NCBI GenBank assembly: GCA_025336685.1
Contig: GCA_025336685.1_4717.1
DNA length: 64,000 bases
Strand: one strand, 5' to 3'
Source of the DNA: Escherichia coli
Lineage (GTDB): Bacteria > Pseudomonadota > Gammaproteobacteria > Enterobacterales > Enterobacteriaceae
Made by a program: the position numbers and the translations under genes
Shown here: positions 17,281 to 55,801 of the stretch, piece by piece
How the letters are laid out: each line of letters starts with the position of its first letter
How positions within the stretch are numbered: the stretch's first letter is position 1
Notes under the pieces: model-generated
The model's input: the letters and a program-made list of their open reading frames with translations, nothing else
The model's database searches: none
What the model was told of the DNA's origin: nothing

Positions 17281-17304
17281 TGAAAGTATCCTTTACAGAA
17301 TTAA

Positions 17305-17314
17305 CTTATATAAG
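17305..17314 (-). promoter_or_regulatory. palindromic CTTATATAAG box about 25 nt upstream of the capsid-candidate start, putative promoter element
   Basis: 10-bp AT-rich palindrome in the 150-nt leader of the most codon-optimised gene. Confidence 0.3.
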
Positions 17315-17429
17315 TCGGTCGATAGACCATAGCGTACACGCGTGCATGCGCCACTATAGTATCAGTAAACACTTACCGTTATTGAGGTCGTGATACAACA
17401 CTAAAAATGCCGCATAACTTTTCCCTACG

Positions 17430-21148: not shown

Positions 21149-21215
21149 CGTTTTACCTTTCTATGTTAGGTGGATTGCGGATAGAAGAATCAATGCATAG
21201 ATTGATCGTTCTTTG

Positions 21216-22118: not shown

Positions 22119-22203
22119 GTTCGGCTCCTTGATTACGATAAGGATGATTGCGGTTTTGTGGTGCTGGTAGGGCCCTAAACAAAGGAACCCTACCAATATT
22201 AGG

Positions 22204-22977
22204 TTATTCAGGATCGGCGTAGAAATGGTGAGGATAGCCGGAGTACGATCCTGCGTTACCGGCTATGGATTCTTTCTGGGAATCGACGACGAGCGCATAG
22301 AACTGTCGGGAATTTGTTAGCGTTGAGAAATAAGCGGAAAGGACTTTTTCATTCAACGCATCGCAAGGTAGACAGGTGCGACCGCAAAACGTAACGATAC
22401 GGCCGTCAGGATAGATCTCACGAATCATTCTCCACTCACCGATATCCACTGGTGATGGTGCTGCTACACCACCTGTTATCGTTAAGTAACGATCGTACGT
22501 GGTATGGCATTCAGGATGAATATAGATCGGCTTGTTCGTTTCGACAGGTTCCGAAGTGTCTCGACGACTAAGGAGTTCAACGACTTCAAGATAAATCGTT
22601 GGTAGATCGCGGAGAATACCGGTGTTACGACGTTTCTTTGTGATTCGCGGACGAATCTCGTTAAGAGCGTATTCGAGCTTACGTTCAGCTTCGTACGCAT
22701 CGAGTTTTATTAGGTGGCCCGGTTCATCGGAATGATCCTGAGTTATGTAAACGAAATACGTGTTGTCTTTTGCAGCGCGAAAGATTCGAGCGACCTTAAA
22801 TGTTTCTACAGTGCGATAACCAAGGCGCGATTGATTTTCCACAGGAGAAAATATCCAATGTCGTCCTTCGTCCGCCCCAACAATTTCGTTGAAACTATCC
22901 GTTTGTTCTGGGACCTGGTAGTCAGCCATTAATGTATCAAGAGCGTCATCGGCCAGTTTGGTGTAAATATCTGTCAT
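22204..22977 (-). CDS. hypothetical protein, tandem paralog of 21216-22118 (257 aa)
   Basis: ATG at 22977 with GAGGA SD; HPECHTTYDRYLTITGGV motif. Confidence 0.8.
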   Translation of the reverse strand: MTDIYTKLADDALDTLMADYQVPEQTDSFNEIVGADEGRHWIFSPVENQSRLGYRTVETFKVARIFRAAKDNTYFVYITQDHSDEPGHLIKLDAYEAERKLEYALNEIRPRITKKRRNTGILRDLPTIYLEVVELLSRRDTSEPVETNKPIYIHPECHTTYDRYLTITGGVAAPSPVDIGEWRMIREIYPDGRIVTFCGRTCLPCDALNEKVLSAYFSTLTNSRQFYALVVDSQKESIAGNAGSYSGYPHHFYADPE

Positions 22978-23032
22978 GTTTGTATCCTCGGTTGTTAAGA
23001 GAAATTTACAATGATAACAGTAACCGTTGCTA

Positions 23033-23054
23033 TCACCTAGGTAATATAGTCGCG
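23033..23054 (-). promoter_or_regulatory. conserved motif TCACCTAGGTAATATAGTCGCG (minus strand CTATATTACCTAGGTGA), putative phage early-type promoter
   Basis: Exact TATATTAC on the minus strand about 60 nt upstream of the 22204-22977 start; motif recurs at 14875, 58090, 58255. Confidence 0.4.
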
Positions 23055-23091
23055 AAATAAACTGGAGTAATACGCTTAAGACAGTATAGAA

Positions 23092-23123
23092 CCCTCTCCC
23101 TTCCCTTACGGGTTGGGAGAGGG
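23092..23123 (-). terminator. junction hairpin CCCTCTCCC-TT-CCC-TTAC-GGG-TTG-GGAGAGGG
   Basis: Perfect inverted repeat immediately after the stop of 23128-24495; inverse orientation of the 37018 copy. Confidence 0.5.
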
Positions 23124-23127
23124 AATA

Positions 23128-28344: not shown

Positions 28345-28395
28345 CGCAGATTCCTGTTTGAAAGATAAGATATCACATGATGGTCGACAGCATAA

Positions 28396-28417
28396 AGCCC
28401 ACCCCGAAGGGCGGGCT
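28396..28417 (-). terminator. intrinsic-terminator-like hairpin (GCCCACCC-CGAA-GGGCGGGC) followed on the minus strand by UUUAUGCUG
   Basis: Stem-loop directly after stop of 28433-31798; U-rich tract after stem on the coding strand. Confidence 0.55.
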
Positions 28418-28432
28418 GTTTATGCGTACGGG

Positions 28433-34205: not shown

Positions 34206-34311
34206 TTGGGACTCCTACGTAGGGAAATCTTGGCGGGTGATCATGTCCGCCATTTACCTTCTGAACCGTTGATTCAGAAGTCAAAAGATAACCGGATACC
34301 GGCGTCATAAA

Positions 34312-34343
34312 CCTTCCTCCTTCCCTTACGGGTTGGAGGAAGG
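34312..34343 (-). terminator. junction hairpin CCTTCCTCC-TT-CCC-TTAC-GGG-TTG-GGAGGAAGG
   Basis: Perfect inverted repeat after the stop of 34354-35643; flanked by CATAAA and TTATG. Confidence 0.5.
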
Positions 34344-34353
34344 GATAGGGTGA

Positions 34354-35643
34354 TTATGCTTTTTCGGTCGCTGCGTTGAAGTATTTCGCAGCAGCAAATA
34401 CAGCATCCGCATACTGACGTACAGAGGCACGGAGGATCTTAGTTCCTAATACAGAGCTTAAACGAGCCATTTCTGTTACAGCTGTGATATAAGGACGTAC
34501 GGTTTCACGATCAGCCTCAGGTAACTTGTCGAGCATTTCGCCCCACTTCGTTTTGATCTGCATTCCGTTGAGTTTAGCGTCTCGTCCTACAGAGCGCGCC
34601 AAACTTTCAACTTTATGCAAATACGTCGGTTCCACCATACGGAATGCCTTCAGATATGCAGTCAATGCGCTTTTCAGCTCATTCCCATCGTGGAAAATAT
34701 TCGCATTTTCGATTTTATCTGTTACGGTGTCAACAACTTCAATATGAACATCCTTCACCAAAGCACATGCTTTAACGACATCCTTCTCTTTTTCTAGCGC
34801 ATCCAACCCTTTAACGACATATTGTTTTCCACCACTTTCTGGAAGTCTGAACGCCCTCAGTGCGGCTTTAGTGGCCTGAAGATACTCGTCTAGGACACGA
34901 TCAAGCGTTGTTAAATCAGTTAGGACATTAATGTCGTAGTTGATATCGCCGATCTTAGTAAATAAGAAATCTGATATCGTCGCACTTGCAGCCAGTTGTT
35001 CGATATGTTTGCTAACGGATGCCGCATCAACAGATTTTGCGTTCGGGAACATATTAACCATATTCCCGGTAGGCTTCTCTAGTTGTTTGATCTGACGTTC
35101 CCCTTTATTGACTTCGGATGCAATTTTGGTGATCTCAGCATAAGCCAGAACGAGATTCTTGAACAACATCTGGAACAGTTTGAACAGTTGCTCAGCAATA
35201 TTTGCAATGATTACCCAAACTGCGTATAACGCTTGTGCTGCGCGTTCTTTAAAGCCTTCCAGTACGATAGCCTGTCCTTCCACTAATTTATCATTAGCCT
35301 GGAACATGTCTTCATCAGACATCCCCAGGTTTGCTGCTGATGTCGAAGCGATCTGACGGATAAGTGCGACGTCGCTCACACGTGCTTCCGAGATCGTTGG
35401 TGCGATCATGTACGCTGTATCTTCCAGCGTTGCTGAGGTACGCACTGCAATTTCAGCCAGTTCGCTGGATTCATCGATTGTCTCGTCGGTATGTCGAATC
35501 ACCAACTCAACTTCACCCTCTTCAATTTCTGCGTTAGGATCGTGTTGCTCCGTCGGAATCGTCGCGAGAAGATCTTCGGCGCTGAGCAATGCGAGTTCGA
35601 ATGCGTTTTTATTGACGTTGTCAAAAAGAGAAATACGTGCCAT
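34354..35643 (-). CDS. head-internal (inner-body-like) protein paralog (429 aa)
   Basis: ATG with AGGAA SD; VSDVALIRQIASTSAANLG and IVLEGFK segments. Confidence 0.85.
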   Translation of the reverse strand: MARISLFDNVNKNAFELALLSAEDLLATIPTEQHDPNAEIEEGEVELVIRHTDETIDESSELAEIAVRTSATLEDTAYMIAPTISEARVSDVALIRQIASTSAANLGMSDEDMFQANDKLVEGQAIVLEGFKERAAQALYAVWVIIANIAEQLFKLFQMLFKNLVLAYAEITKIASEVNKGERQIKQLEKPTGNMVNMFPNAKSVDAASVSKHIEQLAASATISDFLFTKIGDINYDINVLTDLTTLDRVLDEYLQATKAALRAFRLPESGGKQYVVKGLDALEKEKDVVKACALVKDVHIEVVDTVTDKIENANIFHDGNELKSALTAYLKAFRMVEPTYLHKVESLARSVGRDAKLNGMQIKTKWGEMLDKLPEADRETVRPYITAVTEMARLSSVLGTKILRASVRQYADAVFAAAKYFNAATEKA

Positions 35644-35652
35644 GTTAGTTCC

Positions 35653-36969
35653 TTAACCTTTGGTATAGGCTTTAACGAGAGTGTTGATAAATGAAGTCAG
35701 TGCGCGAAGATACTGGTACGCGAACTGGTTTTCAATACGGTTCTCTTTACCGCAAAGCAGAATCGCGCGCTTAACGAGCTTAGGATAGATCTCGATGTAC
35801 GGTTGGTAGCTTGCATCAAAATTCTGCTCGTTGAAGCGTTTCATGGTGATTTCCTGGATACGCTCCATGGTGCGAATTTTATTGCGAGAGAATATCTCAG
35901 AGAAAGCACGTCCGCGTTTTGTTACCATCAACAGATCTTTCGCGAACGTCAGTTGTCGAACGCTACGCAAATCGTCAGGTGTTGGTAGGACGTACGTTTC
36001 TGGATCGTTATCCCATTCAACATCTTCAACGACAATATCCAAGTCGAGGTAACGTTTAACAGCATCGATGATATTGTCTTTTGACGCATCGAATTCTTTC
36101 AAGAAGACTGCGCCGTTGATGTAGCGGATACGTTTTCCGGAAACCGTTGGGGTGATAACGTCAGCACCTTCCACAGAACCACGATTTTCCAGCGTCGATT
36201 TGACAGCGTTCAAGAAAGTCAGATAATCAACGGGAAGTTTTTCAACCTTATCTAAATGGAAGTCGATGATGTTTAATCCTAACCCATCAATAACTGAATA
36301 ACCGTCCGATTTAAGGAACATCTGATTGAAGGTATCGATGTTGCTTTTCAGCGTGTCTACACCACCAACGTTGTTACGGTTAGGGAAAAGTGTTCGCCAC
36401 TCTGCTTTAAACGCGACCTCTTTATTTTCCGTGTATTTGCCTTTGGGCATTTGTTCGAGGGCTGCAATAGCTTTCTGAAAATTGCGTGTCTCGTCATAAA
36501 CAAGATGGGTAAGCTTCTCGAAGGCTGCTGCCAGAGTCAGGGCAATATCAACGATGATATCCCAGATCTTTTTCATGGCTTTTACAACGGTGTCTTTAAA
36601 CCCTTCAACAACCAAAGCTTCTCCAATCTCAACACGGTCGGTTGGAGTCAGCAATGCTTCGGAGGGCAAGCCCAAAGCAATCGATGCGGATTCTTGAATG
36701 TTACGAACCAACGCAACATCACTGTAGTTAGCCGATTCGATAGTCGGGGCAACATCAAAACTGATTTCCCGCAGTGCTTCAACAGCAGGGAAAGCACGAT
36801 CAAGTGCATCTTCATGTTCGTCGATTGTCGCCAAACGTAACTCAACACCATCAGCATCGATGACTTCAGCGGTAGGCTCCACAGCAAGCGCTTCAGCAAC
36901 AATAGGATCTTTTTCAAACGCTTCGAGGCTGATATCGCCTTGGGTCGCAAATAGCGGTATGTGTACCAT
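35653..36969 (-). CDS. head-internal (inner-body-like) protein paralog (about 438 aa)
   Basis: ORF-track start 36993 is TTG; ATG at 36969 has GGAGA SD at 7 nt; YSDVALVRNIQESASIALG and LVVEGFK segments. Confidence 0.85.
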   Translation of the reverse strand: MVHIPLFATQGDISLEAFEKDPIVAEALAVEPTAEVIDADGVELRLATIDEHEDALDRAFPAVEALREISFDVAPTIESANYSDVALVRNIQESASIALGLPSEALLTPTDRVEIGEALVVEGFKDTVVKAMKKIWDIIVDIALTLAAAFEKLTHLVYDETRNFQKAIAALEQMPKGKYTENKEVAFKAEWRTLFPNRNNVGGVDTLKSNIDTFNQMFLKSDGYSVIDGLGLNIIDFHLDKVEKLPVDYLTFLNAVKSTLENRGSVEGADVITPTVSGKRIRYINGAVFLKEFDASKDNIIDAVKRYLDLDIVVEDVEWDNDPETYVLPTPDDLRSVRQLTFAKDLLMVTKRGRAFSEIFSRNKIRTMERIQEITMKRFNEQNFDASYQPYIEIYPKLVKRAILLCGKENRIENQFAYQYLRALTSFINTLVKAYTKG

Positions 36970-37017
36970 GTGTTGTCTCCAGTAATGATTCAAAAGATAA
37001 ACCTGAGCGGCATAGAA

Positions 37018-37049
37018 CCCTCTCCCAACCCGTAAGGGAAGGGAGAGGG
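37018..37049 (-). terminator. junction hairpin CCCTCTCCC-AA-CCC-GTAA-GGG-AA-GGGAGAGGG
   Basis: Perfect inverted repeat after the stop of the codon-optimised 441-aa gene; flanked by CATAGAA and AATATG. Confidence 0.55.
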
Positions 37050-37071
37050 AATATGTCAGTTTATTAACTGA

Positions 37072-38397
37072 TTACTGCTGTGCTGCGTCAGCCGGTTTCT
37101 CGGCCGCCTGGCCGCCGTACTCTTTCAGCATTTTAGCAGCGCCATCCAGGACAGCGTTACCTGCCTGAACACCGTATTTCATCAGACCAGTCTGTGGGTT
37201 CACGTAGCAGGAACGTGCGTCTTTCAGTGCAGACAGTACAGCTTGAACACGCTGTTTTTCCTGAGCGGAAACTTCGCCTTTCTTAGACAGATCAGCTTCC
37301 ATTGCGTCGCCGAATTTAACAGCGTCTTTGAAGCCCTGGGATTTCTTACCGATGTTGCCTTTCAGCGCCAGCAGTTTGTCAGCCAGTACTTCAACACCGC
37401 TAACCGCAGCGGCCAGCTGATTCAGGGACAGGACGGTAGCTTCAACTTCTTTTGCTTCACCGGAGCGTTCCCAGGTTACTTTACCATCGTTGGCTTTGAA
37501 ACCCCAGCCCGCAGGACCAGCAACGTCAGCAATCGCCGGAGCGTTCAGTTTATCGGCGTACTCGGTGTGAGATTTAGCAACAACAGTGTTGACGAATTTA
37601 TCAGCACGATCGTCAGCAGCCTTCATTGCTTTCTCGAAGGTGTCGGCGATTTTGGTCGCACCGGTAACCAGATCGTCGCCACCGATGTAACCTGAAATGC
37701 CACTACCCAGGGTAACTTTGGCATTTTTAGCAGCGCCTTTACGCTTGGCGATCATTTCTTTCAGTTTAGCAGCGCGTGCTTTCAGTTTGGTCGCGCCGTC
37801 GAAGATGCGATCCATGAACTTCACGAAGGTTTCCCAGGAAGTTTTCAGGAAGTTCTTGATGGTTGCCCACAGTTTCTGCCACCATTTTTGTTCTTCCAGG
37901 AAGATCATGTTGGTTGCATCGTAACGGGAAGCAGAACCACCGAAGCTTTCGAAGGACGGCATGGTTTCCGGCAGTTTGAAACCGATAGTACCACACAGGC
38001 GTTTCAGGTTACGCATGTGTTCCTGAGCGGTTTGTGCAGACATACCACCGTCTTTCAGGTAGCTTTCGGTTGCAACAACGGTTTCCGTCAGTTCATCCAT
38101 GGCTTCATCCATGGCTTCTGCGGTTTCGTCGTCTTTTGCAATTTCGATAACAACAGCGTCAACCTGCTCGATATCGCCACGAACTTCGATAGCCAGTTCG
38201 GTTTCAGCTGCAGTATCTTCAGCGATTTCAGCGCGTTCGGTCAGTTCAGCTACAACGGTTTCATCTGCTGCTGCTGCGGCATCAGCTGCCGGTTCTGCTT
38301 CAACGGTTGCCGCTGCATCCGGATCGATCTCAGCAGCCAGTTGAACCAGCTGTGCGTTAGATGGATTTGCGACAAGACGATCAAAAATAGAAGGCAT
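37072..38397 (-). CDS. abundant head-internal protein paralog, codon-optimised (441 aa)
   Basis: ATG at 38397 with AAAGGAAA SD; strongly optimised codon usage like the capsid candidate; Ala/Glu-rich acidic N-terminus; SFESFGG motif. Confidence 0.9.
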   Translation of the reverse strand: MPSIFDRLVANPSNAQLVQLAAEIDPDAAATVEAEPAADAAAAADETVVAELTERAEIAEDTAAETELAIEVRGDIEQVDAVVIEIAKDDETAEAMDEAMDELTETVVATESYLKDGGMSAQTAQEHMRNLKRLCGTIGFKLPETMPSFESFGGSASRYDATNMIFLEEQKWWQKLWATIKNFLKTSWETFVKFMDRIFDGATKLKARAAKLKEMIAKRKGAAKNAKVTLGSGISGYIGGDDLVTGATKIADTFEKAMKAADDRADKFVNTVVAKSHTEYADKLNAPAIADVAGPAGWGFKANDGKVTWERSGEAKEVEATVLSLNQLAAAVSGVEVLADKLLALKGNIGKKSQGFKDAVKFGDAMEADLSKKGEVSAQEKQRVQAVLSALKDARSCYVNPQTGLMKYGVQAGNAVLDGAAKMLKEYGGQAAEKPADAAQQ

Positions 38398-38422
38398 AAT
38401 TTGTTTCCTTTACAATAAATTG

Positions 38423-38438
38423 CACATTAGCTAATGTG
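38423..38438. promoter_or_regulatory. perfect 16-bp palindrome CACATTAGCTAATGTG about 25 nt upstream of the 441-aa gene start
   Basis: Exact palindrome read directly; adjacent second imperfect inverted repeat (TTAAGTG...CACTTAA). Confidence 0.35.
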
Positions 38439-38461
38439 GCTTAAGTGAGCCATTAGCCCAC

Positions 38462-38992
38462 TTAAAAGCCCTTAAAACCCGGTGCCATAGGTTGCCCAAA
38501 CACCGCATTCAAAGTACATATGATGTCCTGGATGCCATTGTCCCAATGGAGCCAAGTACGCACCATCTCTTCGTCTGACAACGTGATATAACTCATAAGT
38601 TTACCGCTGCTTTCCAGACGTTGGTGCGAACTTAGCGACTGACGATCTGACCAGTTATCAATCAGTTGACCAGCGATCTGAACGTTCGTGTCTCGTCTAC
38701 CTGTGTGAATGAACCGCAGTGTATCACGGATAAACTCCAGACTGGTGAAGTTCAGATTTGGGTTATGGCTGTTCATTTCCACCCAGTCGGTAATGGGGTA
38801 CATCAAACGATAAAGGGTAGAAAGAACCTGACGCTCGTATTTCCAGTCATCGAGAGGAGTACCGTCGACCAGACGCTGATACAAACTAACAACGTCGCGA
38901 TCGTAGTTCTCCTGACGTTTTACGCCGTTAACCGGAAATCCGAAGAATCCGGTACCGTATAACGTTAAAGGGACGTCACGAAGTGCACTCAT
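38462..38992 (-). CDS. hypothetical protein (about 176 aa)
   Basis: ORF-track start 39124 overlaps upstream ORF by 135 nt; internal ATG at 38992 forms an ATGA overlap with the upstream stop. Confidence 0.7.
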   Translation of the reverse strand: MSALRDVPLTLYGTGFFGFPVNGVKRQENYDRDVVSLYQRLVDGTPLDDWKYERQVLSTLYRLMYPITDWVEMNSHNPNLNFTSLEFIRDTLRFIHTGRRDTNVQIAGQLIDNWSDRQSLSSHQRLESSGKLMSYITLSDEEMVRTWLHWDNGIQDIICTLNAVFGQPMAPGFKGF

Positions 38993-39465
38993 ACAGCCGC
39001 CTCTTCTTTTCGTTTGATGTCGTAACGAAGTTTCTTCAGTCGCTCTTCGTGATATTCGATCTGCTGCTGGATTTTTGGATCGTTGCCCGCATTCTGTTGC
39101 TTTTGCTTCAGTGACAAAATCCAATACTCCAACGCTTGGGCTTCTTCTTTGGCTGCTTGTAACGACGCTTCTTCACGTTCGCTGCGCCAGATGCGATAAC
39201 GGTAAATAAGCGTGTTGGTCATTTGAGTGTCGGACCATGAACCCATGCGCATCGGGTCAGTATTACCCGCGTTGTACAACCCATTACCAACACCGTCTTC
39301 ATCAGAAACCACAACATCCGGGATTTTATCCAACCCAGCAAGGATCTGTTGTTTCTGTCCACACAGCACCTCGGTGGCAATGGCGAAACCGTACATGTTG
39401 GCGGTCAGGTAAGCAATCTCGTTTTTGGTGAAGAACTCACCAAGTGCTTTATCACCACCTGGCAT
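38989..39465 (-). CDS. hypothetical coiled-coil protein, intact 3' ORF of a frame-disrupted gene (158 aa)
   Basis: First ATG at 39465; frame stays open without a start for 66 further codons upstream to 39663; codon usage optimised. Confidence 0.6.
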   Translation of the reverse strand: MPGGDKALGEFFTKNEIAYLTANMYGFAIATEVLCGQKQQILAGLDKIPDVVVSDEDGVGNGLYNAGNTDPMRMGSWSDTQMTNTLIYRYRIWRSEREEASLQAAKEEAQALEYWILSLKQKQQNAGNDPKIQQQIEYHEERLKKLRYDIKRKEEAAV

Positions 39466-40121
39466 GCTTTCGCAGATGACTGTCGCACGAAGCAGCGTAC
39501 GAGCGTAGCTAACGTAGAAGCCCAGGGACTCAACAAGACGTACCAGAGCGGCTTCTTTGAAACTCAGACCGTCGGCAGCAACATCGATTTCCAGGTTTTT
39601 GTTAACACGTTTAACAATTTCTGGAATCAGATCAACAGCATTACGTAGCGCTATGAACGTTTTCTACCCAGCTTCCAGAGCGAACGCGGGTTAAACGCTG
39701 ATGCAGATCCTTGTCAGCGAGTTTCCATAAGGCGCTTTCCCTTTTGGAGAAGCGGAGCGGATGTCTCGTAGGCGGAATCGCGGTGTTGTTGATTTCGTCA
39801 CGGATCGATTCAAGTGCGTCAGCAACACCGGCAGGTTTAAAAGCGGCTTCAAACTGCGAATGAATTCTTTAAAATCAATTGCCATGAGTGAGCAATTCCG
39901 CGCTATTTCGAACAGGTTACGTGTGTTAACGAATCTGTGGGACGTTTCCGGTACGGAGGCCTGGAGGATCGTCAGAAGATCAACCCGAGGTTGACGAACT
40001 GTTGATTTTTCCAGCTGTTTGAAGCTTACTGTGGTCCCTTGATCCAAGCTGTGGAAATAGAAGGTCACCATCTCTTCAGCTTGTCGATGATGATCAACTG
40101 CATTGCAAGGGCTTCAGCCAT
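39466..40121 (-). pseudogene. frame-disrupted 5' region of the gene ending at 38989 (at least two frame changes)
   Basis: Three minus-strand frames each carry protein-like open stretches (40121-40065, 40071-39691, about 39880-39664) separated by frame switches; ATG at 40121 lies 13 nt after the upstream stop. Confidence 0.4.
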
Positions 40122-40133
40122 GACTTTCACGTG

Positions 40134-41021
40134 TTATAGCCGACAAACGACGTCCGATTCATGCCTGATGGCTTCCTGGTTAGCCTTAGAGATGATATAG
40201 GTGGAGGCGATTGCTCCAGAAGAAGGGATCTTTGTGCTCGCTGCAGCTTTTGCGGCATTGATGCGCGCAGCATTAACAGCCTTGCGGATACCCTCTTTAT
40301 CCATACGTGAGATTCGTTTGTGTTCACGAACCAGGTCACTAAGCAGGATCATGTCGCTCCAGAAAGACAGCTCACCCGCCATCATGCGATGCCAACGTGC
40401 TCGCCAGGTGTTCTGTGGGCCGCCGATCGCTAAAATCGACGCAAGCACTTCCGCTGGTGAACTTGCAATACGCATGCTGATGTTCAATGGCATTTTCATC
40501 GTTGCCTGACCATCGGTCAGCGTCACGGTTAAGAACTTGCCGGTGACCGCGTTTGCATCTTTGTTCAGCAATTCGATCGCTGCGTCGCTGGCCCCAACAT
40601 CGAGGCTATTTTTTTGTTTCCCCAGCAGGTTGAATCCTTTGTCATCAAGGAAAACAAGGCTTTTGCTATCCGCACTTTCCAGTGCTAATTTAACAGCCTT
40701 ATCCATCATGTTAGCGTTACGGTTTGGATTCACACGACCCAGCGTTTTATCGACACTGATATTACCCACCTGCATGATGGTGTTCAACGCCAGTAAATAG
40801 AACCCGGTATACATATTTTCAGCGGTGCGCATGCAGTTGCCTAACGCATTGCGTGCGTCGCTATAATACAACTCACGTTCAAAGATCAACGGCGCGATAA
40901 CGCGTGAAGGTTGTGAGAGTTCAACCAGCGAACCTGGCTGGATAAGTTTATTAACTTCGTAGACTTTAGCGATACCGGACGCAACAACGTTAACAGCGTC
41001 GGCAATTTCTGATGCTACCAT
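40134..41021 (-). CDS. hypothetical protein (295 aa)
   Basis: ATG at 41021 with AAGGA SD. Confidence 0.8.
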   Translation of the reverse strand: MVASEIADAVNVVASGIAKVYEVNKLIQPGSLVELSQPSRVIAPLIFERELYYSDARNALGNCMRTAENMYTGFYLLALNTIMQVGNISVDKTLGRVNPNRNANMMDKAVKLALESADSKSLVFLDDKGFNLLGKQKNSLDVGASDAAIELLNKDANAVTGKFLTVTLTDGQATMKMPLNISMRIASSPAEVLASILAIGGPQNTWRARWHRMMAGELSFWSDMILLSDLVREHKRISRMDKEGIRKAVNAARINAAKAAASTKIPSSGAIASTYIISKANQEAIRHESDVVCRL

Positions 41022-41055
41022 ATTGAAATCCTTATTTACAAATAAAGGAAAGAAA

Positions 41056-41265
41056 ATGTCTAATTACTACGACCAAGCTATTCAAACCATTCAGGAAGAT
41101 AATGCGTCGTTAACACCCGAAGCTGTGGAGGCAGCGGGCAATGCGGTGTTATTCACTGATTCAGATTGGGCAATGGCGCGGAAGAATATTCGTACCAGTG
41201 TCGGTCAAGGGACATACGGACAGTATCGCCAGACGGTATCGGAATGTGTCACCTATTCCGGGTAA
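41056..41265 (+). CDS. small ORF (69 aa), possibly the 5' part of the downstream gene joined by a +1 frameshift
   Basis: ATG with AAAGGAAAG SD only 34 nt from the divergent start at 41021; overlaps 41141-42259 by 125 nt in another frame. Confidence 0.35.
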   Translation: MSNYYDQAIQTIQEDNASLTPEAVEAAGNAVLFTDSDWAMARKNIRTSVGQGTYGQYRQTVSECVTYSG

Positions 41266-42259
41266 CAGTCCGATTCCGATTAACCGCGATCATGCCGGTA
41301 TTACCTTCTTCACACGACCTAATTTACATCTTACCGACGCGAACTTAAAACGAGATCGACGTTTGTGGTCGTTACGTACGGATAACCCTAACAGTATTCA
41401 GGCTGTTGTCCGTGACTACTTGGACCCTGTGGGTGCCAGAAAGCGGAACCATCGAGGACGTGCCATCGTCGATGAGCGCAATCCATTCATAAGTATACTG
41501 ACGGACAACCTGACGGATATCAGCGGTTTCAATGACATGGAAATGCAGGTCTATCAGGGTAAACCGGGATTACGCCAAGAAACCGTTGTGATGGCTGACG
41601 GTTCAGTGGATATGTTTCAACCCTATAACCTGAACGCGACGTTCAAGAACATCATGGGTAACCCCATCATGTTCCTTCATTATATTTGGTTGATTTACAT
41701 CGCTGGTGTGCATAATGGTGAACTGACGCCAAGCCCTCAGGCCATCATCGACAATGAAATGGATTACTGGACAAGATGTTATCGTATCATCCTGGATCCG
41801 ACTGGGATGTATGTTCGTTATATCTTCGCACCGACCGCGATGTTTCCTGTCGGGTTACCGACTGGTAATATGGCTAACTACAGCATCGATAAACCCTTCA
41901 CGCAAGATAACGAACGTATCACTATTCCATACCAAGCGGTTGGTAACAACGCATTCGATGAAATTCTGAAGGATGAATTCAATCGACTTGTCCTGATGTT
42001 CTATTACGGTGAGAACGATACCCGTACGTTCCTTGAAGATGAGGAGTTGGTACCTATTTCACCCTACGAGCGTCGAATCATGTCGTATCGTGTCGATATG
42101 TATCCATTTATTCATCCGTTGACCTCAGAGCTTCTTTGGTTCGTACCCGCTGATGCTTACAACGAATTCTATCTGGATCTTGAGCCATCGGCGTTACCAC
42201 CGGATACGTTCAGTCGCGATCTTGTCCGTACCACCATTCCGCAAAATTACGAGGGATAA
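41141..42259 (+). CDS. hypothetical protein (372 aa)
   Basis: ATG at 41141 with GGAGG 9 nt upstream; first gene of a plus-strand cluster. Confidence 0.7.
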   Translation: MRCYSLIQIGQWRGRIFVPVSVKGHTDSIARRYRNVSPIPGNSPIPINRDHAGITFFTRPNLHLTDANLKRDRRLWSLRTDNPNSIQAVVRDYLDPVGARKRNHRGRAIVDERNPFISILTDNLTDISGFNDMEMQVYQGKPGLRQETVVMADGSVDMFQPYNLNATFKNIMGNPIMFLHYIWLIYIAGVHNGELTPSPQAIIDNEMDYWTRCYRIILDPTGMYVRYIFAPTAMFPVGLPTGNMANYSIDKPFTQDNERITIPYQAVGNNAFDEILKDEFNRLVLMFYYGENDTRTFLEDEELVPISPYERRIMSYRVDMYPFIHPLTSELLWFVPADAYNEFYLDLEPSALPPDTFSRDLVRTTIPQNYEG

Positions 42260-45257: not shown

Positions 45258-45278
45258 AACAAAATAGCATGAGCATAA

Positions 45279-45310
45279 CCCTCCTCCAACCCGTAAGGGA
45301 AGGAGGAGGG
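45279..45310. terminator. junction hairpin CCCTCCTCC-AA-CCC-GTAA-GGG-AA-GGAGGAGGG between convergent genes
   Basis: Identical to the 19727 copy; flanked by CATAA and AATATG. Confidence 0.55.
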
Positions 45311-45319
45311 AATATGTTG

Positions 45320-48171: not shown

Positions 48172-50967
48172 TTAAGCTAATTTACCGAAACCGGCTTTCT
48201 GCAGTTTCTCGTTGATGATTTTCGCTTCAGCGAAGACGTAATCACGATACGCAGTGACTAACCCATCCACCCGTGAACGCAAGGCTTCTTCGAAGCTATA
48301 CCACGCAGCGATTTCACGAATCTGTGCGTTGATATAATCAACGGTTGAGCGAAGCTCGGTTGCATTTTCTTGCGGAATGGCTTTCACCTGGCGAGCAACG
48401 TCATTTAAACGACGGAACTGTGTTTCGATTTCTTTAAACTTACTGTCGGCAAGTTTGCTGAATTCGTCACCGGAACGGGTGAATAACAGATAGCTGTTGC
48501 CGTCAAGCGCTGTCGCTAACTGCTGAAGAACGTTGGTATCCGGATACACAGGAGTACCGCTTTGCAGTACTTTCTCACCGAATTCCGCGAAGTCCTTCGG
48601 CGGTAAGTGCGCAGACGTTGTTAACTCGTTGAAACGGAAAGTCAGCGAATTATCATACAGCATCCGGTACGCTTCCATACCCTGTTGCATGGTACCGGCC
48701 AGGTTAGCCAGACGCGGAGCAATCTCACCCTCTTTAGCGCGTTTCTGGTCTTCTAACGCCCCTTCGAGTTCTTTACACTGGTCGTTCAGATACACGATAC
48801 GATCGGGACGCAGACGACGCATCTCACGAAGAATAGTATCCAGCTTACCTTCCTGGAAATAACCCAACGTTAAAGACGTACACGCTTGCTGAAGACGATC
48901 GAACACCGGCAAGGTCACCATCTCTTTACGGATACCATCAACAATCGCAGAAACAGCCGAAAGTTTCTGTTCGGTGGTTAATGGGGCGTCAGAGACCGAC
49001 TTGCTGGGCGCGCCAACAACGTTACGCATTGCGTCGGTATCCTCGGTTTTATCAACCTCTTTACGAACATTCTCATCAGGAACATAAACGTTCGCGTTAC
49101 GTTTCGCCTGCTTGATGGCGTCGTTGGCTGCTTTTTCGGTGGCCGCTACGCTATCGGCACGTTTCTTCAAGAGTTCGATAATCCAGAGCAACAGACGACG
49201 AATCGCGGTATAGGCCGTCGTGATGATGACACCGATAACAGCCATCTTCATGATACCGAACGATTCCATGGTCGGCTCTAACGCCTGGTCTGGCATATAC
49301 CGTTCACGCAGTTCCAGATAGATCTGCTCATCTGGTTTGCTGATCTCACCACGATGCGAAGTCCGATAGATGGCTTCGTCAATCTCAACAAGATCTTTGC
49401 GTGCCTGACGGTCTGTTTCGGTCAGATAAGCGCAGCCGGATACATCGTCTTCAAAACTTTCGAACTTGAAAAAGTCATTGACATCGATCTTGATCTTCTT
49501 CGCTTCATTATCGACATCAATAAAATCTTTTTTCTGTGCTTGATATTCCGCTTTGATGTCGTTCACCGGCTTCAACGCACGTTCTTTTAATGCCTGTACG
49601 ATCTGTTTCCAGTCAGCGTCGCGCTCAAGAACAAGGAAGTAATTCTTGAGTTCAAAAGCACGGTAACGCGCAACGAGTTGTTCTACCTGAACATGAGCGA
49701 GTTGCACGTCCATCAGCCAACGCGACATTGCCGAGATCAAACGACTATAAGCAAGTAATGTTTGATACGTCAGCTTCATGTGCTTTTCGTACAGCTCAAT
49801 ATCGCCGTCTTGAATATCAGCCGTCGGGTTCATTTCCTTCGTTGCTTTGAAGATTTGTTCGGCTTCATTTAAAGTCTGTTCGAATTTGACTTCATTAAAC
49901 GCGTCGAACGGCTCAGCCAACACCGCCATTCGATCGCGAAGTTCACGAACCCAGGCGTCTTTATTGTTGCGAATAGCTGCGTCATCGTGAAGTTCGGTTT
50001 GATGTTTCTGTACCCATTCTTCGACGATATCAGCGGCGGCAACAATTCCGGTACCATCGGAAACTAACGGAACAACTCCAGCAAGTACGCCTACACATGC
50101 CGGAGTTTTCCAGTAATCGTTCAAAGCGTTTCTGAATTCAACGATGGATTGTACGTTTGGTACCATATCCAAAAACGTACTGCCGTTACGGCTCATTGTC
50201 GTTACGATATCAGCGAATTCCTTCTGCTTGGCGGTAACAAAAGGAACCAGGACCATAAGCCATTCAGCAACCGATTTCGCTTTTTCTTTCAGGTTCTTGT
50301 CTGCGATTTCTTTAAGACTAATCGCACCACCATAACCTGCAAGCTCTTTATATACGTCGCTAAGTGTCATCTGTTTATCCAACATTTCTTTGAAACGTGG
50401 ATAATCAGCACCTAACGCATCGATAATATCGTTGATTACGTCGTCGGTTGTCGCGATAAACTTCTTCGTATCGACGTTTGAATATTTCCAGACGTACCGT
50501 ACGGCTTTCTTGATTCCTGCAAAGATAAACGCCCAAATACGCTTGATGAGTTCCCAGACTTTCTTCGCGCCATCGACAAACAGTTTAGAGACCTTGGCAA
50601 CGAATCCTTCCTGTACCAACTCAACGCCGTTACGTGATGGGATTTCGGTGAAGAAAGCATCCGGTAGTTGTTTCGGGAACGCGTCGCCAAGACGCATACG
50701 CAGTTCGGGTACATCAGCACGAGAAATACCCCGTGTTACTAACTGTTCGTGAAGACGAACGTTTTCTTCGCCAGAGGTCACGAATTGGTTAACATCGAAG
50801 GAAACCATCGCTTCCTGATCTTCGGTGGTGACGACGCTTGAACCATCGCTGGTTTGGATGTCTTCGTCAGGGAACGCCATGAGCATACCGTGACGCATTT
50901 CAACCACTCCGTAATCGGTTGCTAAACCGAATTCGTTGTGGTCAGGGGTAATAACTGGGATACTCAT
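48172..50967 (-). CDS. large hypothetical virion-associated protein (931 aa)
   Basis: ATG at 50967 in ATGA overlap; N-terminal VELVQEGFVAK...KKVWELIKRIW segment resembles the head-internal paralog motif. Confidence 0.9.
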   Translation of the reverse strand: MSIPVITPDHNEFGLATDYGVVEMRHGMLMAFPDEDIQTSDGSSVVTTEDQEAMVSFDVNQFVTSGEENVRLHEQLVTRGISRADVPELRMRLGDAFPKQLPDAFFTEIPSRNGVELVQEGFVAKVSKLFVDGAKKVWELIKRIWAFIFAGIKKAVRYVWKYSNVDTKKFIATTDDVINDIIDALGADYPRFKEMLDKQMTLSDVYKELAGYGGAISLKEIADKNLKEKAKSVAEWLMVLVPFVTAKQKEFADIVTTMSRNGSTFLDMVPNVQSIVEFRNALNDYWKTPACVGVLAGVVPLVSDGTGIVAAADIVEEWVQKHQTELHDDAAIRNNKDAWVRELRDRMAVLAEPFDAFNEVKFEQTLNEAEQIFKATKEMNPTADIQDGDIELYEKHMKLTYQTLLAYSRLISAMSRWLMDVQLAHVQVEQLVARYRAFELKNYFLVLERDADWKQIVQALKERALKPVNDIKAEYQAQKKDFIDVDNEAKKIKIDVNDFFKFESFEDDVSGCAYLTETDRQARKDLVEIDEAIYRTSHRGEISKPDEQIYLELRERYMPDQALEPTMESFGIMKMAVIGVIITTAYTAIRRLLLWIIELLKKRADSVAATEKAANDAIKQAKRNANVYVPDENVRKEVDKTEDTDAMRNVVGAPSKSVSDAPLTTEQKLSAVSAIVDGIRKEMVTLPVFDRLQQACTSLTLGYFQEGKLDTILREMRRLRPDRIVYLNDQCKELEGALEDQKRAKEGEIAPRLANLAGTMQQGMEAYRMLYDNSLTFRFNELTTSAHLPPKDFAEFGEKVLQSGTPVYPDTNVLQQLATALDGNSYLLFTRSGDEFSKLADSKFKEIETQFRRLNDVARQVKAIPQENATELRSTVDYINAQIREIAAWYSFEEALRSRVDGLVTAYRDYVFAEAKIINEKLQKAGFGKLA

Positions 50968-51436: not shown

Positions 51437-52747
51437 TTAGGCGATAATGGAATCAAGAGTCGCTGCTGTTTTGAACAGATCGCTGTTCATTGTAGAAGAA
51501 AGGACTTGCTGAATTTCTTCCTGTTTAACTGCTTTACGAACCCCTGGACGAAGGATAAGCGTAACCATCTGTGAAAAGGTACGATTATTGTTCATCACAC
51601 TCAGCGTTTCATCGATTGTTTTGATGGTATCCAACGTCATGGAACGAACATCGCTTGGAACATCACGATCTTTCAGACGTATGATTAAATCTTGTTTGAT
51701 TTTACGGAATCGTTCCATGTCGTTATCGTAAATGCTGTATGTCGGATCCAACCAAACAGAAAGCGCGGTTACAGCGATAACAACCAACACGCCGATAGCA
51801 CCAACAGAAGCTAAACCTAACGCCATCATAGAAGCTATAGTAGCATCCATGATGAAGGAGAGCCAGAACATCGTTTTGGACTTCATGGAATTGGTGCCAT
51901 AAAGCCGATACATTTTAGCAAGCCCGCTAACGAGATACTCCCCACTACCGTGACGCGTAGCGAACTGATCAGCCATGAATTCGGAAGCAACGTCGGTATA
52001 TCGTCCAGCGTTGTTTACATTTCGTAATTGCATCGCTTTGTTAGACACGTAAACCGTGTACCAGACACTACCATCGTCCGAATCGCCGATTTTGTTTACG
52101 TCGACGTTAGTATCCAGCGTTTTGTTTAACGCTTTAGCCAGTTCGATACGTTTTACCTTATCGGTTGTCCCCAACAGTTCGCGCTGCACGGTCATGATTG
52201 AGGCTTCGACACGAACCGTTTCCGACAATGTTTCAAGGAAAGTAAATGCATGACCGATTTCATGCAGCATTATGGCTGCTTTTTCTTCCGGAAGAAAGGG
52301 TTCTGTCGCTGTTAGCAGTTCATACGTGATGGCAGAACGAATCTTCAACTCCTCAAAGATACCGTAAGCGCGACCTTTTTCTAAATCGACGTAACCGACA
52401 GGTGCATCTTTAATCTTCTTAAGAAGTGCGACACCATCGACACCACGCATCCATAACCGATGATAGTCTGCCAGGATCGTGTTGTTTGTCGAAATATCCG
52501 GCGGGTACACGTAGGCATTCATCTGGCCCATTTTCACGTCGACCGAGAATTCGATGTTCAACCCAGTATAGCGTTTAACCATCTCGGTTAAATGACCGTC
52601 CTTGAAAACGTTTAAAACATCTTTTTTATCCAGTCCCTGTTTGCTTCTGAAGAACTCGGTCATTTCCTTGAACAAGGAACCATCCTGAAACTTGATGGCC
52701 TCCATCGTTAATTCGTCATGACCATACACGCGTTGTAGTAATGACAT
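51437..52747 (-). CDS. putative membrane-associated zinc metallopeptidase with HExxH motif (436 aa)
   Basis: AAIMLHEIGHAFTF (HExxH) about aa 160; two hydrophobic helices near aa 290-330; family not assignable by eye. Confidence 0.8.
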   Translation of the reverse strand: MSLLQRVYGHDELTMEAIKFQDGSLFKEMTEFFRSKQGLDKKDVLNVFKDGHLTEMVKRYTGLNIEFSVDVKMGQMNAYVYPPDISTNNTILADYHRLWMRGVDGVALLKKIKDAPVGYVDLEKGRAYGIFEELKIRSAITYELLTATEPFLPEEKAAIMLHEIGHAFTFLETLSETVRVEASIMTVQRELLGTTDKVKRIELAKALNKTLDTNVDVNKIGDSDDGSVWYTVYVSNKAMQLRNVNNAGRYTDVASEFMADQFATRHGSGEYLVSGLAKMYRLYGTNSMKSKTMFWLSFIMDATIASMMALGLASVGAIGVLVVIAVTALSVWLDPTYSIYDNDMERFRKIKQDLIIRLKDRDVPSDVRSMTLDTIKTIDETLSVMNNNRTFSQMVTLILRPGVRKAVKQEEIQQVLSSTMNSDLFKTAATLDSIIA

Positions 52748-52759
52748 TATACACTCTCT

Positions 52760-52775
52760 AAATTTACGTAAATTT
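52760..52775. promoter_or_regulatory. perfect 16-bp palindrome AAATTTACGTAAATTT just upstream of the metallopeptidase RBS
   Basis: Exact palindrome within the 220-nt divergent intergenic region; operator-like. Confidence 0.35.
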
Positions 52776-52968
52776 AAGGGCTAATGGATCGGCTGGCCGC
52801 ACCAATCACAATGTGTTCGTTGCTATGCAACGGCATTCATAGAAATACCTTTTGAGTGTAGCATTACCATTCACACCCCAAGCAATAAGAGCGGTCGGTT
52901 AAAAACAACAGAACGTGAGGATGATATAGAAAATCACCTTTTAACACTTATTACGAGTTTATCAAGCC

Positions 52969-54138
52969 ATGAGCGAACAAGAACGAAAACCTAAGAAGAA
53001 ACTGCTCGGTATTCAATGTCGACACATCAGCTATAACGAAGCGAACGATGGTAGTAAGAACGACCTCATGATCGCAAAAGAGATCATGTTCTTCGATGAT
53101 AATACGCAAGCGACGAACCTTCGCTTCTTTGAGAATTACAAACGTCCGTTTTGGGTGACGGTAGAGAGTAAACGTAAGAACAAATATAAAAAGGAAAGCG
53201 AGAAGCTCTCGCATGTGCGTCGCTACGATGTCCGCCAAAGCGAACTGGTTGAAAAGATCAGCTCGGTACTTTATAAAAGACGTGCTGACGATAACACCCG
53301 TTTACAGCAGCTCGCACGGAGTCCCTACCTCTATGGCACGGACGTTAGCGCCAGCTGTTATTTAAAAACCCAATATAATACAAAATGGCCGGAATACGTC
53401 GATAAATTACCCGCTTCTATCGCCTGTTTCGATATCGAAACCGACGTTGTCCATGGACACGGTAAGATCGTCTGTATGTCTATTACAATGGGATACAATG
53501 CGATACTTTGCTATACCAAGGACTTCGTTGGTCATATTCCGAATGCGATTGAGAAAACCCATGAGAAGATCCGATATTACCTGGCCGAACGTCTGAACAC
53601 CAAAGAAGATCCTCACGCGTTCGAAAAATATCAGTACGATGTTCGAATCGTAGAAAGTCCGGCGCAAGCGGTCATCCAATGCATGCAGAAGGTTCACGAA
53701 TGGCAACCGGATTATCTCCTTGGCTGGAATATCGCGTTCGATATTCCGCGCATGCTCCAGGCACTGAACGAGGAAGGGTATCGTCCCGAGGATGTTTTCT
53801 CCGATCCTCGCGTACCCCCTAAGTATCGTATTGCTCGCTGGGTACCACCGAAAACCGACAAGGTATCTGCTTCGGGTCGTAAAACCAACCTTACCCTCGA
53901 GCAGACCTGGCCGATGTTTTATACGATGGCTACGTATCAGGTTATGGATGCGATGTGTGGTTATAAGTTCGTTCGTTTAGGAAGACCGGATGAGGGACGT
54001 TACTCACTCGATGCGGTATTAGAGCGAAATAAATGCCATACGAAATTAAAAGCAATTCCTGGTACAGAAGGGTTCACAGAGCTCGCCTGGCACGAAAGAG
54101 ATGCAAACGAACCATCAAATCGACTACGGCGTATATAA
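52969..54138 (+). CDS. family-B DNA polymerase fragment: N-terminal 3'-5' exonuclease domain (389 aa)
   Basis: Exo I CFDIETD, Exo II YLLGWNIAFD, Exo III-like YQVMDA; weak SD. Confidence 0.8.
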   Translation: MSEQERKPKKKLLGIQCRHISYNEANDGSKNDLMIAKEIMFFDDNTQATNLRFFENYKRPFWVTVESKRKNKYKKESEKLSHVRRYDVRQSELVEKISSVLYKRRADDNTRLQQLARSPYLYGTDVSASCYLKTQYNTKWPEYVDKLPASIACFDIETDVVHGHGKIVCMSITMGYNAILCYTKDFVGHIPNAIEKTHEKIRYYLAERLNTKEDPHAFEKYQYDVRIVESPAQAVIQCMQKVHEWQPDYLLGWNIAFDIPRMLQALNEEGYRPEDVFSDPRVPPKYRIARWVPPKTDKVSASGRKTNLTLEQTWPMFYTMATYQVMDAMCGYKFVRLGRPDEGRYSLDAVLERNKCHTKLKAIPGTEGFTELAWHERDANEPSNRLRRI

Positions 54139-54292: not shown

Positions 54293-54712
54293 ATGGGATG
54301 CACTGCCGACGACATGACCCAGGAAGAAGATAAGTGGGTTATCTCACGAACCGGACATATCGTCACATTACCGTGCGATCTCATGGCAGACAACGGCATT
54401 CATCTCTTCTGGGATATGCCTAATCTGAGAAGTTATATCCGTCTATTCGTTGCAGACCTCGACATAAGCAGTTCATATCCAAATGGGCAGATCCTGCTCA
54501 ATCTATCCAGAGCCTGTGTTTTCCGTGAGCTATCACGCATTGAGGGCGTCTCTGACTATCAATTCAGGAAGTTAGGTATCAACTTTATTACCGGAGGTAA
54601 AACGAACGCTGTAGACTTCTGTAGAATCGTTTATAAAGCACCATCGATGTTTGAACTCTTAGAGCATTTCGATGCGACGCGTCCGAAAGAGGAAGCGCGG
54701 ACCATCGAATGA
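54293..54712 (+). CDS. family-B DNA polymerase fragment carrying motif A (139 aa), separated from the exonuclease ORF by frame changes
   Basis: VADLDISSSYPNG matches pol B motif A (DxxSLYPS); no motif B or C before the stop at 54712. Confidence 0.55.
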   Translation: MGCTADDMTQEEDKWVISRTGHIVTLPCDLMADNGIHLFWDMPNLRSYIRLFVADLDISSSYPNGQILLNLSRACVFRELSRIEGVSDYQFRKLGINFITGGKTNAVDFCRIVYKAPSMFELLEHFDATRPKEEARTIE

Positions 54713-54777
54713 TTCAAGTGATACGATAAGGGTCATCCCGTTGATCCTCGCCTAACAAAAAGAAAACGCATGCGAAG

Positions 54778-54809
54778 CCCCTCCCCCTGGCGGAAGCCGG
54801 AGGGAGGGG
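54778..54809. terminator. GC-rich hairpin with GGAA loop followed by TTTTATGTGTTTTTAATT; bidirectional terminator
   Basis: Between stop of the polymerase fragment and stop of 54828-55277; T-rich tracts on both sides. Confidence 0.55.
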
Positions 54810-54827
54810 TGGAGGTTTTATGTGTTT

Positions 54828-55277: not shown

Positions 55278-55287
55278 TGATGCTCCT

Positions 55288-55797: not shown

Positions 55798-55801
55798 TTC
55801 T

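Follow-up and report, generated by a model that had tools for sequence, protein, structure and literature searches.

We find that the 64-nt spacer separating the gp59 and gp58 homologues of a phage closely matching Goslar holds two inverted repeats of different kinds, one (H1) constrained in structure and the other (H2) constrained in sequence. Our tentative reading, to which we would give a little less than an even chance, is that this spacer is a two-part mRNA leader module, in which an H1 hairpin is combined with a sequence-specific H2 near the ribosome-binding site of gp58. The stretch of DNA analysed (the window) is 64,000 nt long and shares 97% identity with Escherichia phage vB_EcoM_Goslar, a jumbo phage that forms a nucleus, and homologues were assigned by mapping the Goslar genes onto it. 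The features of the locus are as follows:

38462..38992, minus strand: gp59 homologue, vertex-complex protein (PhiKZ_gp91 family, PF25618)
38398-38461, minus strand: spacer from gp59 to gp58, 64 nt, holding part of H1 and H2
38439..38469, minus strand: hairpin H1, 13 pairs, UU bulge, loop of 3-5 nt, dG -16.8 kcal/mol
38423..38438, minus strand: palindrome H2, CACATTAGCTAATGTG, perfect, 16 bp
38424..38437, minus strand: 14-nt core of H2, ACATTAGCTAATGT, identical in L033, L034, RAY, L109 and L083
38406..38414, minus strand: TGTAAAGGA, a 9-mer holding the Shine-Dalgarno sequence (SD) AAGGA (38406-38410)
37072..38397, minus strand: gp58 homologue, 441 aa (PF12699 / phiKZ-type internal head protein)
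36970..37071, minus strand: spacer from gp58 to gp57, with a CCTCC-type hairpin and then TTCTATGCCG

The first-pass annotation had suspected that this leader belongs to a very abundant protein, and this is borne out in Goslar, where gp58 is the dominant PF12699 protein at ~2150 copies per virion, gp57 is present at ~50 copies, and gp59 is assigned to the vertex-binding complex (preprint 10.64898/2026.04.21.720040). Given these figures, expression must climb steeply at the gp59-gp58 spacer, and we count this requirement for gp58, ~40 times that of its neighbours, in favour of the RNA leader module. The control of stoichiometry in nucleus-forming jumbo phages is largely obscure, and their mRNAs must exit a protein shell; H2 would be a concrete and mutable handle on the problem.

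Other spacers of this genome carry units of a G+C-rich hairpin and T(T)TATGC(C/T)G, which fit a terminator plus a phiKZ-type late promoter (nvRNAP), a TATG motif that overlaps the transcription start (PMC7598289). One such unit lies after gp58, where the hairpin and TTCTATGCCG at 36970..37071 are likely a terminator plus TATG late promoter bounding the gp58 cistron; the gp59-gp58 spacer has none. H1 and H2 resemble these units in being inverted repeats in late virion gene spacers of the same genome, and differ in being A+U-richer, unique in sequence and without a following T(T)TATGC(C/T)G; neither repeat fits the G+C-rich 'CCTCC' hairpin plus TTTATGC pattern, as had been noted at the outset. 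We found no phiKZ-type late promoter in the spacer, the only TATGs being at the start codon overlap and at -93. An internal late promoter at the latter was considered and rejected, as this TATG is lost in the relatives L033 and L034, and the matching TATG of the capsid leader is lost in L030. Scans for sigma-70 promoters and intrinsic terminators over 35000-42000 made no call at the site, and their overall counts equalled those in shuffled sequence; a search of Rfam 15 matched no family, the only hit being a sub-threshold isrG on the other strand at 38250-38357 (16.7 bits, gathering threshold 100). A literature search found no transcription start map for Goslar, and it is from the operon structure that we infer transcription of H2 in the window.

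Along the minus strand the order is 5'-H1-H2-SD-ATG-3', and the sense RNA reads ...GGGCUUU-UAA-GUGGGCUAAUGGCUCACUUAAGCC-ACAUUAGCUAAUGUG-CAAUUUAU-UGUAAAGGA-AACAAAUU-AUG. Both repeats described in the first-pass annotation, the perfect 16-bp palindrome and the inverted repeat TTAAGTG...CACTTAA (38441-38447 / 38459-38465), are present where it placed them, although they are not nested, as it had called them, but tandem and 2 nt apart. Its placement of the pair between the upstream stop codon and the SD holds for H2 and fails for H1, as the TAA stop of the gp59 homologue (38462-38464) lies inside the H1 5' arm on the sense strand. The TTAAGTG/CACTTAA core of H1 lengthens to 10-nt arms (38441-38450 / 38456-38465, 90% complementary), and an outer GGCU/AGCC stem brings the total to 13 pairs. 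As an RNA monomer H2 folds into 6 bp around an AGCU loop, which makes a weak stem (dG -3.1 kcal/mol); as a 16-bp RNA homoduplex it has a predicted dG of -22.9 kcal/mol. Its 3' end is 8 nt before TGTAAAGGA and 25 nt before the ATG (38395-38397), and the SD is 8 nt 5' of the ATG. There are three copies of TGTAAAGGA in the window, every one just upstream of a start codon, and in the leaders of both gp58 and the major capsid gene it lies at -17 from the ATG.

The 86-nt leader folds better than its shuffles to a moderate degree (z = -2.4), and its minimum free energy structure does not always include H2. Four perfect palindromes of at least 16 bp occur in the window, compared with 1.17 +/- 1.1 in Markov shuffles, and H2 is therefore not significant as a palindrome by itself; its significance comes from conservation and not from length. 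No further copy of the 16-mer was found in the window with up to three mismatches allowed, and H2 is single-copy in the Goslar genome also. A switch in which the H1 apex (GCUAAUG) pairs with the 5' half of the palindrome was considered and set aside, as it is available in the window haplotype only and absent in the Goslar and L007 variants.

The first-pass annotation had named conservation in related phages as a check, and we find it in two forms, with H1 kept as a structure and the palindrome kept as a sequence. For H1, we compared 10 distinct spacer versions from metagenomic and isolate contigs with gp58 85-100% identical, and 13 sequences of the Goslar group define the following block:

38323..38623, minus strand: low-diversity block, -225 to +75 of the gp58 ATG, in 13 Goslar-group sequences

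The H1 apex is the sole interruption of this block and the peak of diversity in the 1.1-kb alignment (pi = 0.26), and yet pairing is held in 98% of cells across the 10 variants, compared with 21-42% when the partners are slid by 1-3 columns. Compensatory changes occur at two adjacent pairs (U-A to C-G and G-C to A-U), with one-sided toggles at three more (A-U/G·U, G·U/G-C and U-A/U·G), and since each G·U pair would correspond to an A·C mismatch in the opposite strand, selection acts on the sense-strand RNA of H1. Its stability stays between -13 and -17 kcal/mol across the Goslar group, and in L033 and L034 its place is taken by hairpins that are unrelated to it and less stable (-7.8 kcal/mol in L033, -3.1 in L034). 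The stem of H1 would suit an intrinsic terminator in its 13 pairs and stability, whereas that of H2 would not; however, H1 has no U-run on its 3' side, where GCCACAUUAG follows, and a consensus terminator scan is silent at 38398-38470. H1 is thus not a canonical terminator. H2 is followed by CAAUUUAUUGU, which is only loosely U-rich. Nor does either repeat resemble a T7-type RNase III site, for which an irregular stem of ~20 bp or more is typical, with 13 pairs in H1 and six in H2; the two stems could conceivably stack coaxially. H1 is an RNA structure free in its sequence, and its most likely role is to insulate or stabilise the RNA where the gp59 cistron ends.

H2 behaves differently. Within the Goslar group it has a single polymorphism, A or G at its second base (the first base of the core), giving an A-U or a G·U pair; the whole stretch from H2 to +60 is invariant in this group, and conservation at this range is thus not specific to H2. 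The relatives L033, with gp59 and gp58 homologues 70% and 45% identical, and L034, with homologues 52% and 39% identical, are more informative, as ACATTAGCTAATGT is identical at 14 of 14 positions in both and the remainder of the 65-nt spacer has diverged, including the H2-to-SD stretch, which differs in length and sequence. In L034 the outer C-G pair is replaced by A-T, and a perfect 16-bp palindrome is retained. Overall, pair variation in H2 comprises A-U to G·U exchange at one pair and C-G, A-U, U-A or A·A at the outer pair. Further afield, the corresponding gp59-gp58-type junctions of PhiEaH1, LucasX, Moabite and RAY have an 11-37 nt spacer without the 14-mer. PhiEaH1-type contigs have, at the junction between the gp91-like and internal head protein genes, a different perfect palindrome of 12 bp, CTCTTGCAAGAG(G), the 3' arm of which is the SD, and the junction palindromes of distant relatives take in the SD: CTCTTGCAAGAGG, and in one contig CTCTTAGCTAAGGG, which has the core TTAGCTAA in common and includes one U·G pair.

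The same 14-mer also lies in front of a different gene. ACATTAGCTAATGT is found 30-32 nt ahead of the start codon of chimallin, the nuclear shell protein, in Erwinia phage RAY (Agricanvirus), in Ea35-70, Simmy50 and other close RAY relatives, and in two metagenomic contigs, one of 287 kb from IMG/VR and one of 31 kb. The match between RAY and L033 continues into the flanks, to 18 nt in all (GCAACATTAGCTAATGTA). The lead to these loci came from loose scans of IMG/VR and GTDB (CATTAGCTAATG...AAGGA), which returned mostly chance matches in A+T-rich coding DNA; the lead itself (L083, L109 and L278) was confirmed with tighter patterns. By chance the 14-mer is expected about once per 1000 genomes of such size, and its occurrence in the leader of a top-expressed gene is far less likely. 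In the RAY-type phages it is 25 nt downstream of TATATTAC, which we take to be a match to the phiKZ early-promoter consensus, and in RAY and L109 it sits between TATATTAC and the ATG, such that the 14-mer would be inside the transcript. H2 and its copies in other phages lie at a constant distance of 25-33 nt ahead of the start codon. A literature search for the 14-mer found no paper containing it.

A comparable arrangement precedes the major capsid gene in the window:

17304..17315, minus strand: capsid-leader palindrome ACTTATATAAGT, perfect, 12 bp

The capsid leader has the same layout as that of gp58, with a hairpin GGTCTATCGACC, then ACTTATATAAGT, the 6-nt TAATTC and TGTAAAGGA, and in relatives with 68-72% capsid identity the GGTCTATCGACC hairpin covaries and ACTTATATAAGT is unchanged. 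RAY-type phages, with a capsid ~32% identical, have AACTTATATAAGTT. Among 32 IMG/VR capsid loci surveyed, the arms ACTTA(T)/(A)TAAGT recur in many lineages, across genera at 28-32% capsid identity, separated by 0, 2, 3 or 5 nt and showing a compensatory A-T to T-A change plus a U·G pair; perfect palindromes of different sequence occur in other lineages. The palindrome of L346 has AT in place of TA at its centre and is still self-complementary. The phiKZ capsid leader has TCCTACGTAGGA, which includes the SD, that of 2050HW has TAAATAACGTTATTTA, and that of PhiEaH1 an 18-bp palindrome. Perfect palindromes of at least 12 bp number 10 in 855 nt within the 45 nt upstream of capsid starts, as compared with 20 in 52.5 kb of the capsid genes plus downstream sequence, a 31-fold enrichment among loci that share ancestry and represent 3-4 independent origins. 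Few Goslar palindromes of at least 12 bp lie within ~35 nt of a start codon, and the capsid gene, gp58 and chimallin (AATGACGTCATT) each have one of them; a second Goslar copy of AATGACGTCATT has no adjoining ribosome-binding site and is 61 nt upstream of an early-type motif. Transition-type asymmetries between the arms of related elements are G·U on the sense strand in five of six cases, the sixth being C·A (window CCCTACGTAGGA versus Goslar TCCTACGTAGGA).

The first-pass annotation had thought of H2 as a possible dedicated operator. This part of its proposal is not supported, given the same 14-mer in the chimallin leader of RAY-type Erwinia phages and analogous palindromes before the capsid and other genes; on sequence comparison, the gp58-leader palindrome looks like a member of a class of elements and not a private operator. 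Ribosome-binding-site-proximal palindromes in Chimalliviridae appear to be such a class, hitherto undescribed, and their link to expression level draws on few genes in an opportunistic survey.

In the leader module that we favour, it would be the pairing alone of H1 that matters. H1 would close the gp59 cistron, with the stop codon in its 5' arm, could be a barrier to exonucleases or read-through, and may keep upstream sequence off the ribosome-binding site. H2 would be a short A+U-rich stem-loop (or self-complementary duplex) ahead of TGTAAAGGA whose sequence matters, as a putative site at which a phage factor, or else the translation machinery, sets gp58 output by recognising it. In favour of this module we also count the covariation of H1, the unchanged H2 core in L033 and L034, its recurrence in chimallin leaders, the abundance of palindromes before capsid starts, and the SD within the junction palindromes of distant relatives. 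We infer that H2 acts as RNA, is read by a factor, and affects translation or stability and not transcription. If so, H2 could be used to seek the factor that reads it and could be transferred to engineered phages or expression cassettes, and the division between a structure-constrained H1 and a sequence-constrained H2 guides the choice of informative mutants.

The main rival to the RNA leader module is a double-stranded DNA operator at H2, where a dimeric phage-encoded protein in the phage nucleus blocks or activates transcription into gp58, which we regard as unlikely. It would account for a perfect dyad, central AGCT included, of a length within the 12-20 bp expected of such sites, and for strict sequence conservation across lineages that extends to the loop positions. 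A hairpin loop does not demand central dyad symmetry, as a DNA duplex or RNA homoduplex would, and the dyad runs through the centre (AGCT, TATA or ACGT) in many independent cases, the self-complementary replacement in the L346 capsid element being one point for the operator; duplexes of either type are favoured accordingly. The second AATGACGTCATT copy in Goslar, upstream of a promoter-like motif and outside a leader, also favours reading at the level of a duplex, and the low stability of the H2 monomer (-3.1 kcal/mol in the window, -1.4 in L034, and -0.7 for ACTTATATAAGT) weakens the RNA hairpin and is to the operator's advantage. However, Goslar and the window have one copy of H2 each, with no promoter recognised nearby, one site serves different genes in different genera, and the palindromes of other genes lack a consensus, such that many regulators would be needed. 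The position of the element is also tied to the SD and ATG in genes of apparently different promoter classes and phage polymerases, as chimallin follows an early-type motif whereas MCP and gp58, being virion genes, are presumed late, which argues that H2 acts in the transcript. The 0-5 nt spacing tolerated between the arms of the capsid-gene element, where an operator would have fixed half-sites, argues for a fold-back hairpin over a dimer site, and the asymmetries, five of the G·U type against one C·A, favour action as RNA. Together these three points make us lean toward RNA. A resemblance of the palindrome to CRP, LexA or Fur boxes was discarded for mismatches in arm order or spacing, and because the phage nucleus generally keeps host factors out.

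We consider it decidedly unlikely that H1, with or without H2, is a partial terminator or pause site for the phage RNA polymerase, or a site of processing or 5'-3' protection that leaves gp58 with a stable monocistronic mRNA, with H2 static merely because a marginal A+U stem cannot drift. H1 is certainly stable, sits precisely where the cistron ends and shows the pattern of change seen in terminator stems. RNase E typically acts in A+U-rich single-stranded RNA beside stems, a context seen here, and the U-rich CAAUUUAUUGU comes after H2; 32 of the 132 terminators reported for the 201phi2-1 transcriptome are without a sequence motif (PMC11512511). Nevertheless, H1 lacks a U-tract and drew no call in the terminator scan, it dwindles to -7.8 kcal/mol in L033 and -3.1 in L034, where H2 is identical, and terminating ahead of the most abundant product would be counter-intuitive without a following promoter, of which none is recognisable. 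Stasis of a marginal stem also fails to explain the identical 18-mer in the non-orthologous chimallin leader of RAY. Very unlikely, in our view, is that H2 and the invariant block downstream are all or part of a promoter for the non-virion RNA polymerase, giving a short-leader gp58 transcript. The need for gp58 expression far above that of the upstream genes, the invariance from H2 to the ATG in the Goslar group and the presence of TGTAAAGGA at the same distance from the ATG in the capsid leader would suit it, as would the poor definition of middle and late promoters in phiKZ-like phages (PMC7598289), but no TATG late motif is suitably placed, the H2-to-SD sequence is not kept in L033 or L034, different genes have different palindromes, and in RAY and L109 the 14-mer is downstream of the early-type TATATTAC. 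That H2 is a chance or neutral remnant, such as a by-product of template switching or a moved regulatory cassette, seems to us extremely unlikely: about one 16-bp palindrome is expected per 64 kb, and template-switch mutagenesis could be the source of the hypervariability at the H1 apex, yet this reading must contend with 14/14 identity at 39-52% protein identity in an otherwise diverged spacer, with the recurrence of the 14-mer in RAY-type chimallin leaders, and with the 31-fold palindrome enrichment in capsid-gene leaders.

Returning to the RNA leader module, the element is best filed as a variant of phage leader stem-loops or operators. Phage RNA translational operators include the coat protein-replicase hairpin of MS2 and Qbeta, the T4 gene 43 operator, which is upstream of the SD, and the T4 RegA sites. 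H2 resembles these as a short mRNA stem-loop at or near the ribosome-binding site with conserved stem and loop sequence, which by analogy could control the output of one cistron within a polycistronic message; it differs in that it is clear of the SD and AUG (the element of the distant relatives covers the SD), serves different genes in different genera, is self-complementary at its centre and has a weaker stem. Stabilising stem-loops include the 5' hairpins of E. coli ompA and the RNase III-site hairpins at the ends of T7 mRNAs, to which H1 is similar in its stability, its location at a cistron boundary upstream of a strongly expressed gene and its structure-only conservation; unlike these, H1 overlaps the upstream stop codon, and its 13 pairs are too short and regular for T7-type RNase III. 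Dyad DNA operators include those of lambda and P22, the P2 Ogr site TGT-N12-ACA and the Mu C sites. H2 is like these in being a perfect, sequence-conserved dyad of 14-16 bp, and unlike them in its single copy, the lack of a recognisable promoter nearby or of a cross-gene consensus, and the variable half-site spacing of the capsid-gene element. PeSLs are mobile promoter-early/stem-loop cassettes of T4-type phages. The parallel is a short stem-loop sequence upstream of non-orthologous genes, with the RAY copy following an early-type motif, although the window copy is without an early-promoter motif, and the sole sign of mobility is the sharing of 14-18 nt.

We speculate, as something of a long shot, that ACATTAGCTAATGT, ACTTA..TAAGT and their relatives are a vocabulary of palindromic tags in the leaders of the most-made proteins, which could include the capsid, internal head and nuclear shell proteins of nucleus-forming jumbo phages. 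Such tags would be read by a putative conserved phage factor, for example for mRNA export or privileged translation, or act through homoduplexes, in which case mRNA-mRNA pairing could be a concentration-dependent brake.

The 3' arm of the palindrome also contains an AUG that could open a mini-ORF, a candidate that we rejected for want of an SD and for its variable length and keep in mind only as a faint prospect. This AUG is missing from the PhiEaH1-type and L359 elements; the mini-ORF has five codons in the Goslar group, six in L033 and five in L034, and in RAY and L109 it is just AUG-UAA.

Among 13 Goslar-group sequences, almost no variation, even at synonymous sites, is seen in a 300-nt block around the gp59/gp58 junction (window positions 38323-38623), which takes in the final 160 nt of the gene for the vertex-complex protein gp59 and the opening 75 nt of that for the abundant internal head protein gp58; the exception is the apex of H1, the variable hairpin overlapping the gp59 stop codon. 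This invariance could be due to an extended regulatory region or to recent recombination.

Further palindromes, in the leaders of capsid and other genes and in one cluster around a divergent spacer, are as follows.

17304-17315, minus strand: 12-bp palindrome ACTTATATAAGT, upstream of the major capsid gene SD
about 34215-34226: CCCTACGTAGGA, in the leader of the gp055 homologue, the counterpart of TCCTACGTAGGA
Goslar 60909-60920: TCCTACGTAGGA, in the gp055 leader
phiKZ AF399011, about 118250-118261: TCCTACGTAGGA, in the major capsid gene leader
RAY NC_041973 247604-247634: AATACGATCGTATT and TTAATTTCATGAAATTAA, in the gp298 leader
52282-52297, 52759-52776 and 53426-53441: three clustered long perfect palindromes

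RAY-type phages and many IMG/VR contigs, at only 28-32% capsid protein identity, retain the capsid-leader palindrome ACTTATATAAGT, either in the form AACTTATATAAGTT or with a short spacer between the same arms. The SD-containing palindrome TCCTACGTAGGA is identical in the Goslar gp055 and phiKZ major capsid gene leaders, and its 201phi2-1 counterpart is TCCTGCGTAGGA. The two perfect palindromes of the RAY gp298 leader abut one another just upstream of the SD; gp298 (451 aa) follows gp295-gp297, downstream of a gp91-like gene. Of the window's four longest perfect palindromes, three are grouped within 1.2 kb around the divergent gp067/gp068 homologue spacer, and one of these, the 18-bp TAAATTTACGTAAATTTA, lies inside that spacer; the gp068 homologue is the DNA polymerase.

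Long spacers and the region upstream of the chimallin (nuclear shell protein) gene contain motifs like TATATTACCTAGGTGA and CTTACATTACCTAGGTGA, resembling TATATTAC, the core of phiKZ early promoters (those of the virion RNA polymerase).

Window 14725-15057, 58135-58360 (minus); Goslar 172960-172990; RAY 181619-181626: TATATTACCTAGGTGA/CTTACATTACCTAGGTGA-like motifs
Goslar NC_048170 172929-172940 and 142859-142870: 12-bp palindrome AATGACGTCATT

Both Goslar copies of AATGACGTCATT are in spacers (two found, ~0.014 expected by chance): one precedes the chimallin ATG by 30 nt, and the other lies in the gp159/gp160 spacer, where it precedes a TATATTAC motif by 61 nt.

Within the window, the G+C-rich 'CCTCC' hairpins almost always have T(T)TATGC(C/T)G after them; these hairpins occupy the following spacers.

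36970-37071, 34206-34353, 28345-28432, 14725-15057, 56255-56496, 58135-58360 and 58763-58977, minus strand: CCTCC hairpin spacers
8441-8520, 19702-19773 and 45258-45319: further CCTCC hairpin spacers

The combined unit is repeated throughout the Goslar genome, and it fits an intrinsic-type terminator joined to a late promoter of the phiKZ type, with TATG at the start site.

Two segments (21149-23127 and 54454-55801) are without counterpart among the mapped Goslar genes. Relative to Goslar, about 2 kb replaces or expands the gp047 region, and the region of gp069 (a NUMOD1/HNH endonuclease) and gp070 also differs, which suggests that mobile endonuclease-type genes have been gained or lost. In DNA identity to Goslar, two homologues fall below the genes beside them, which stand at about 93-98%.

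34354-35643: homologue of gp056, a PF12699-fold paralogue, only 78%
48172-50967: homologue of gp065, only 86%

Both genes may be locally fast-evolving or recombinant.
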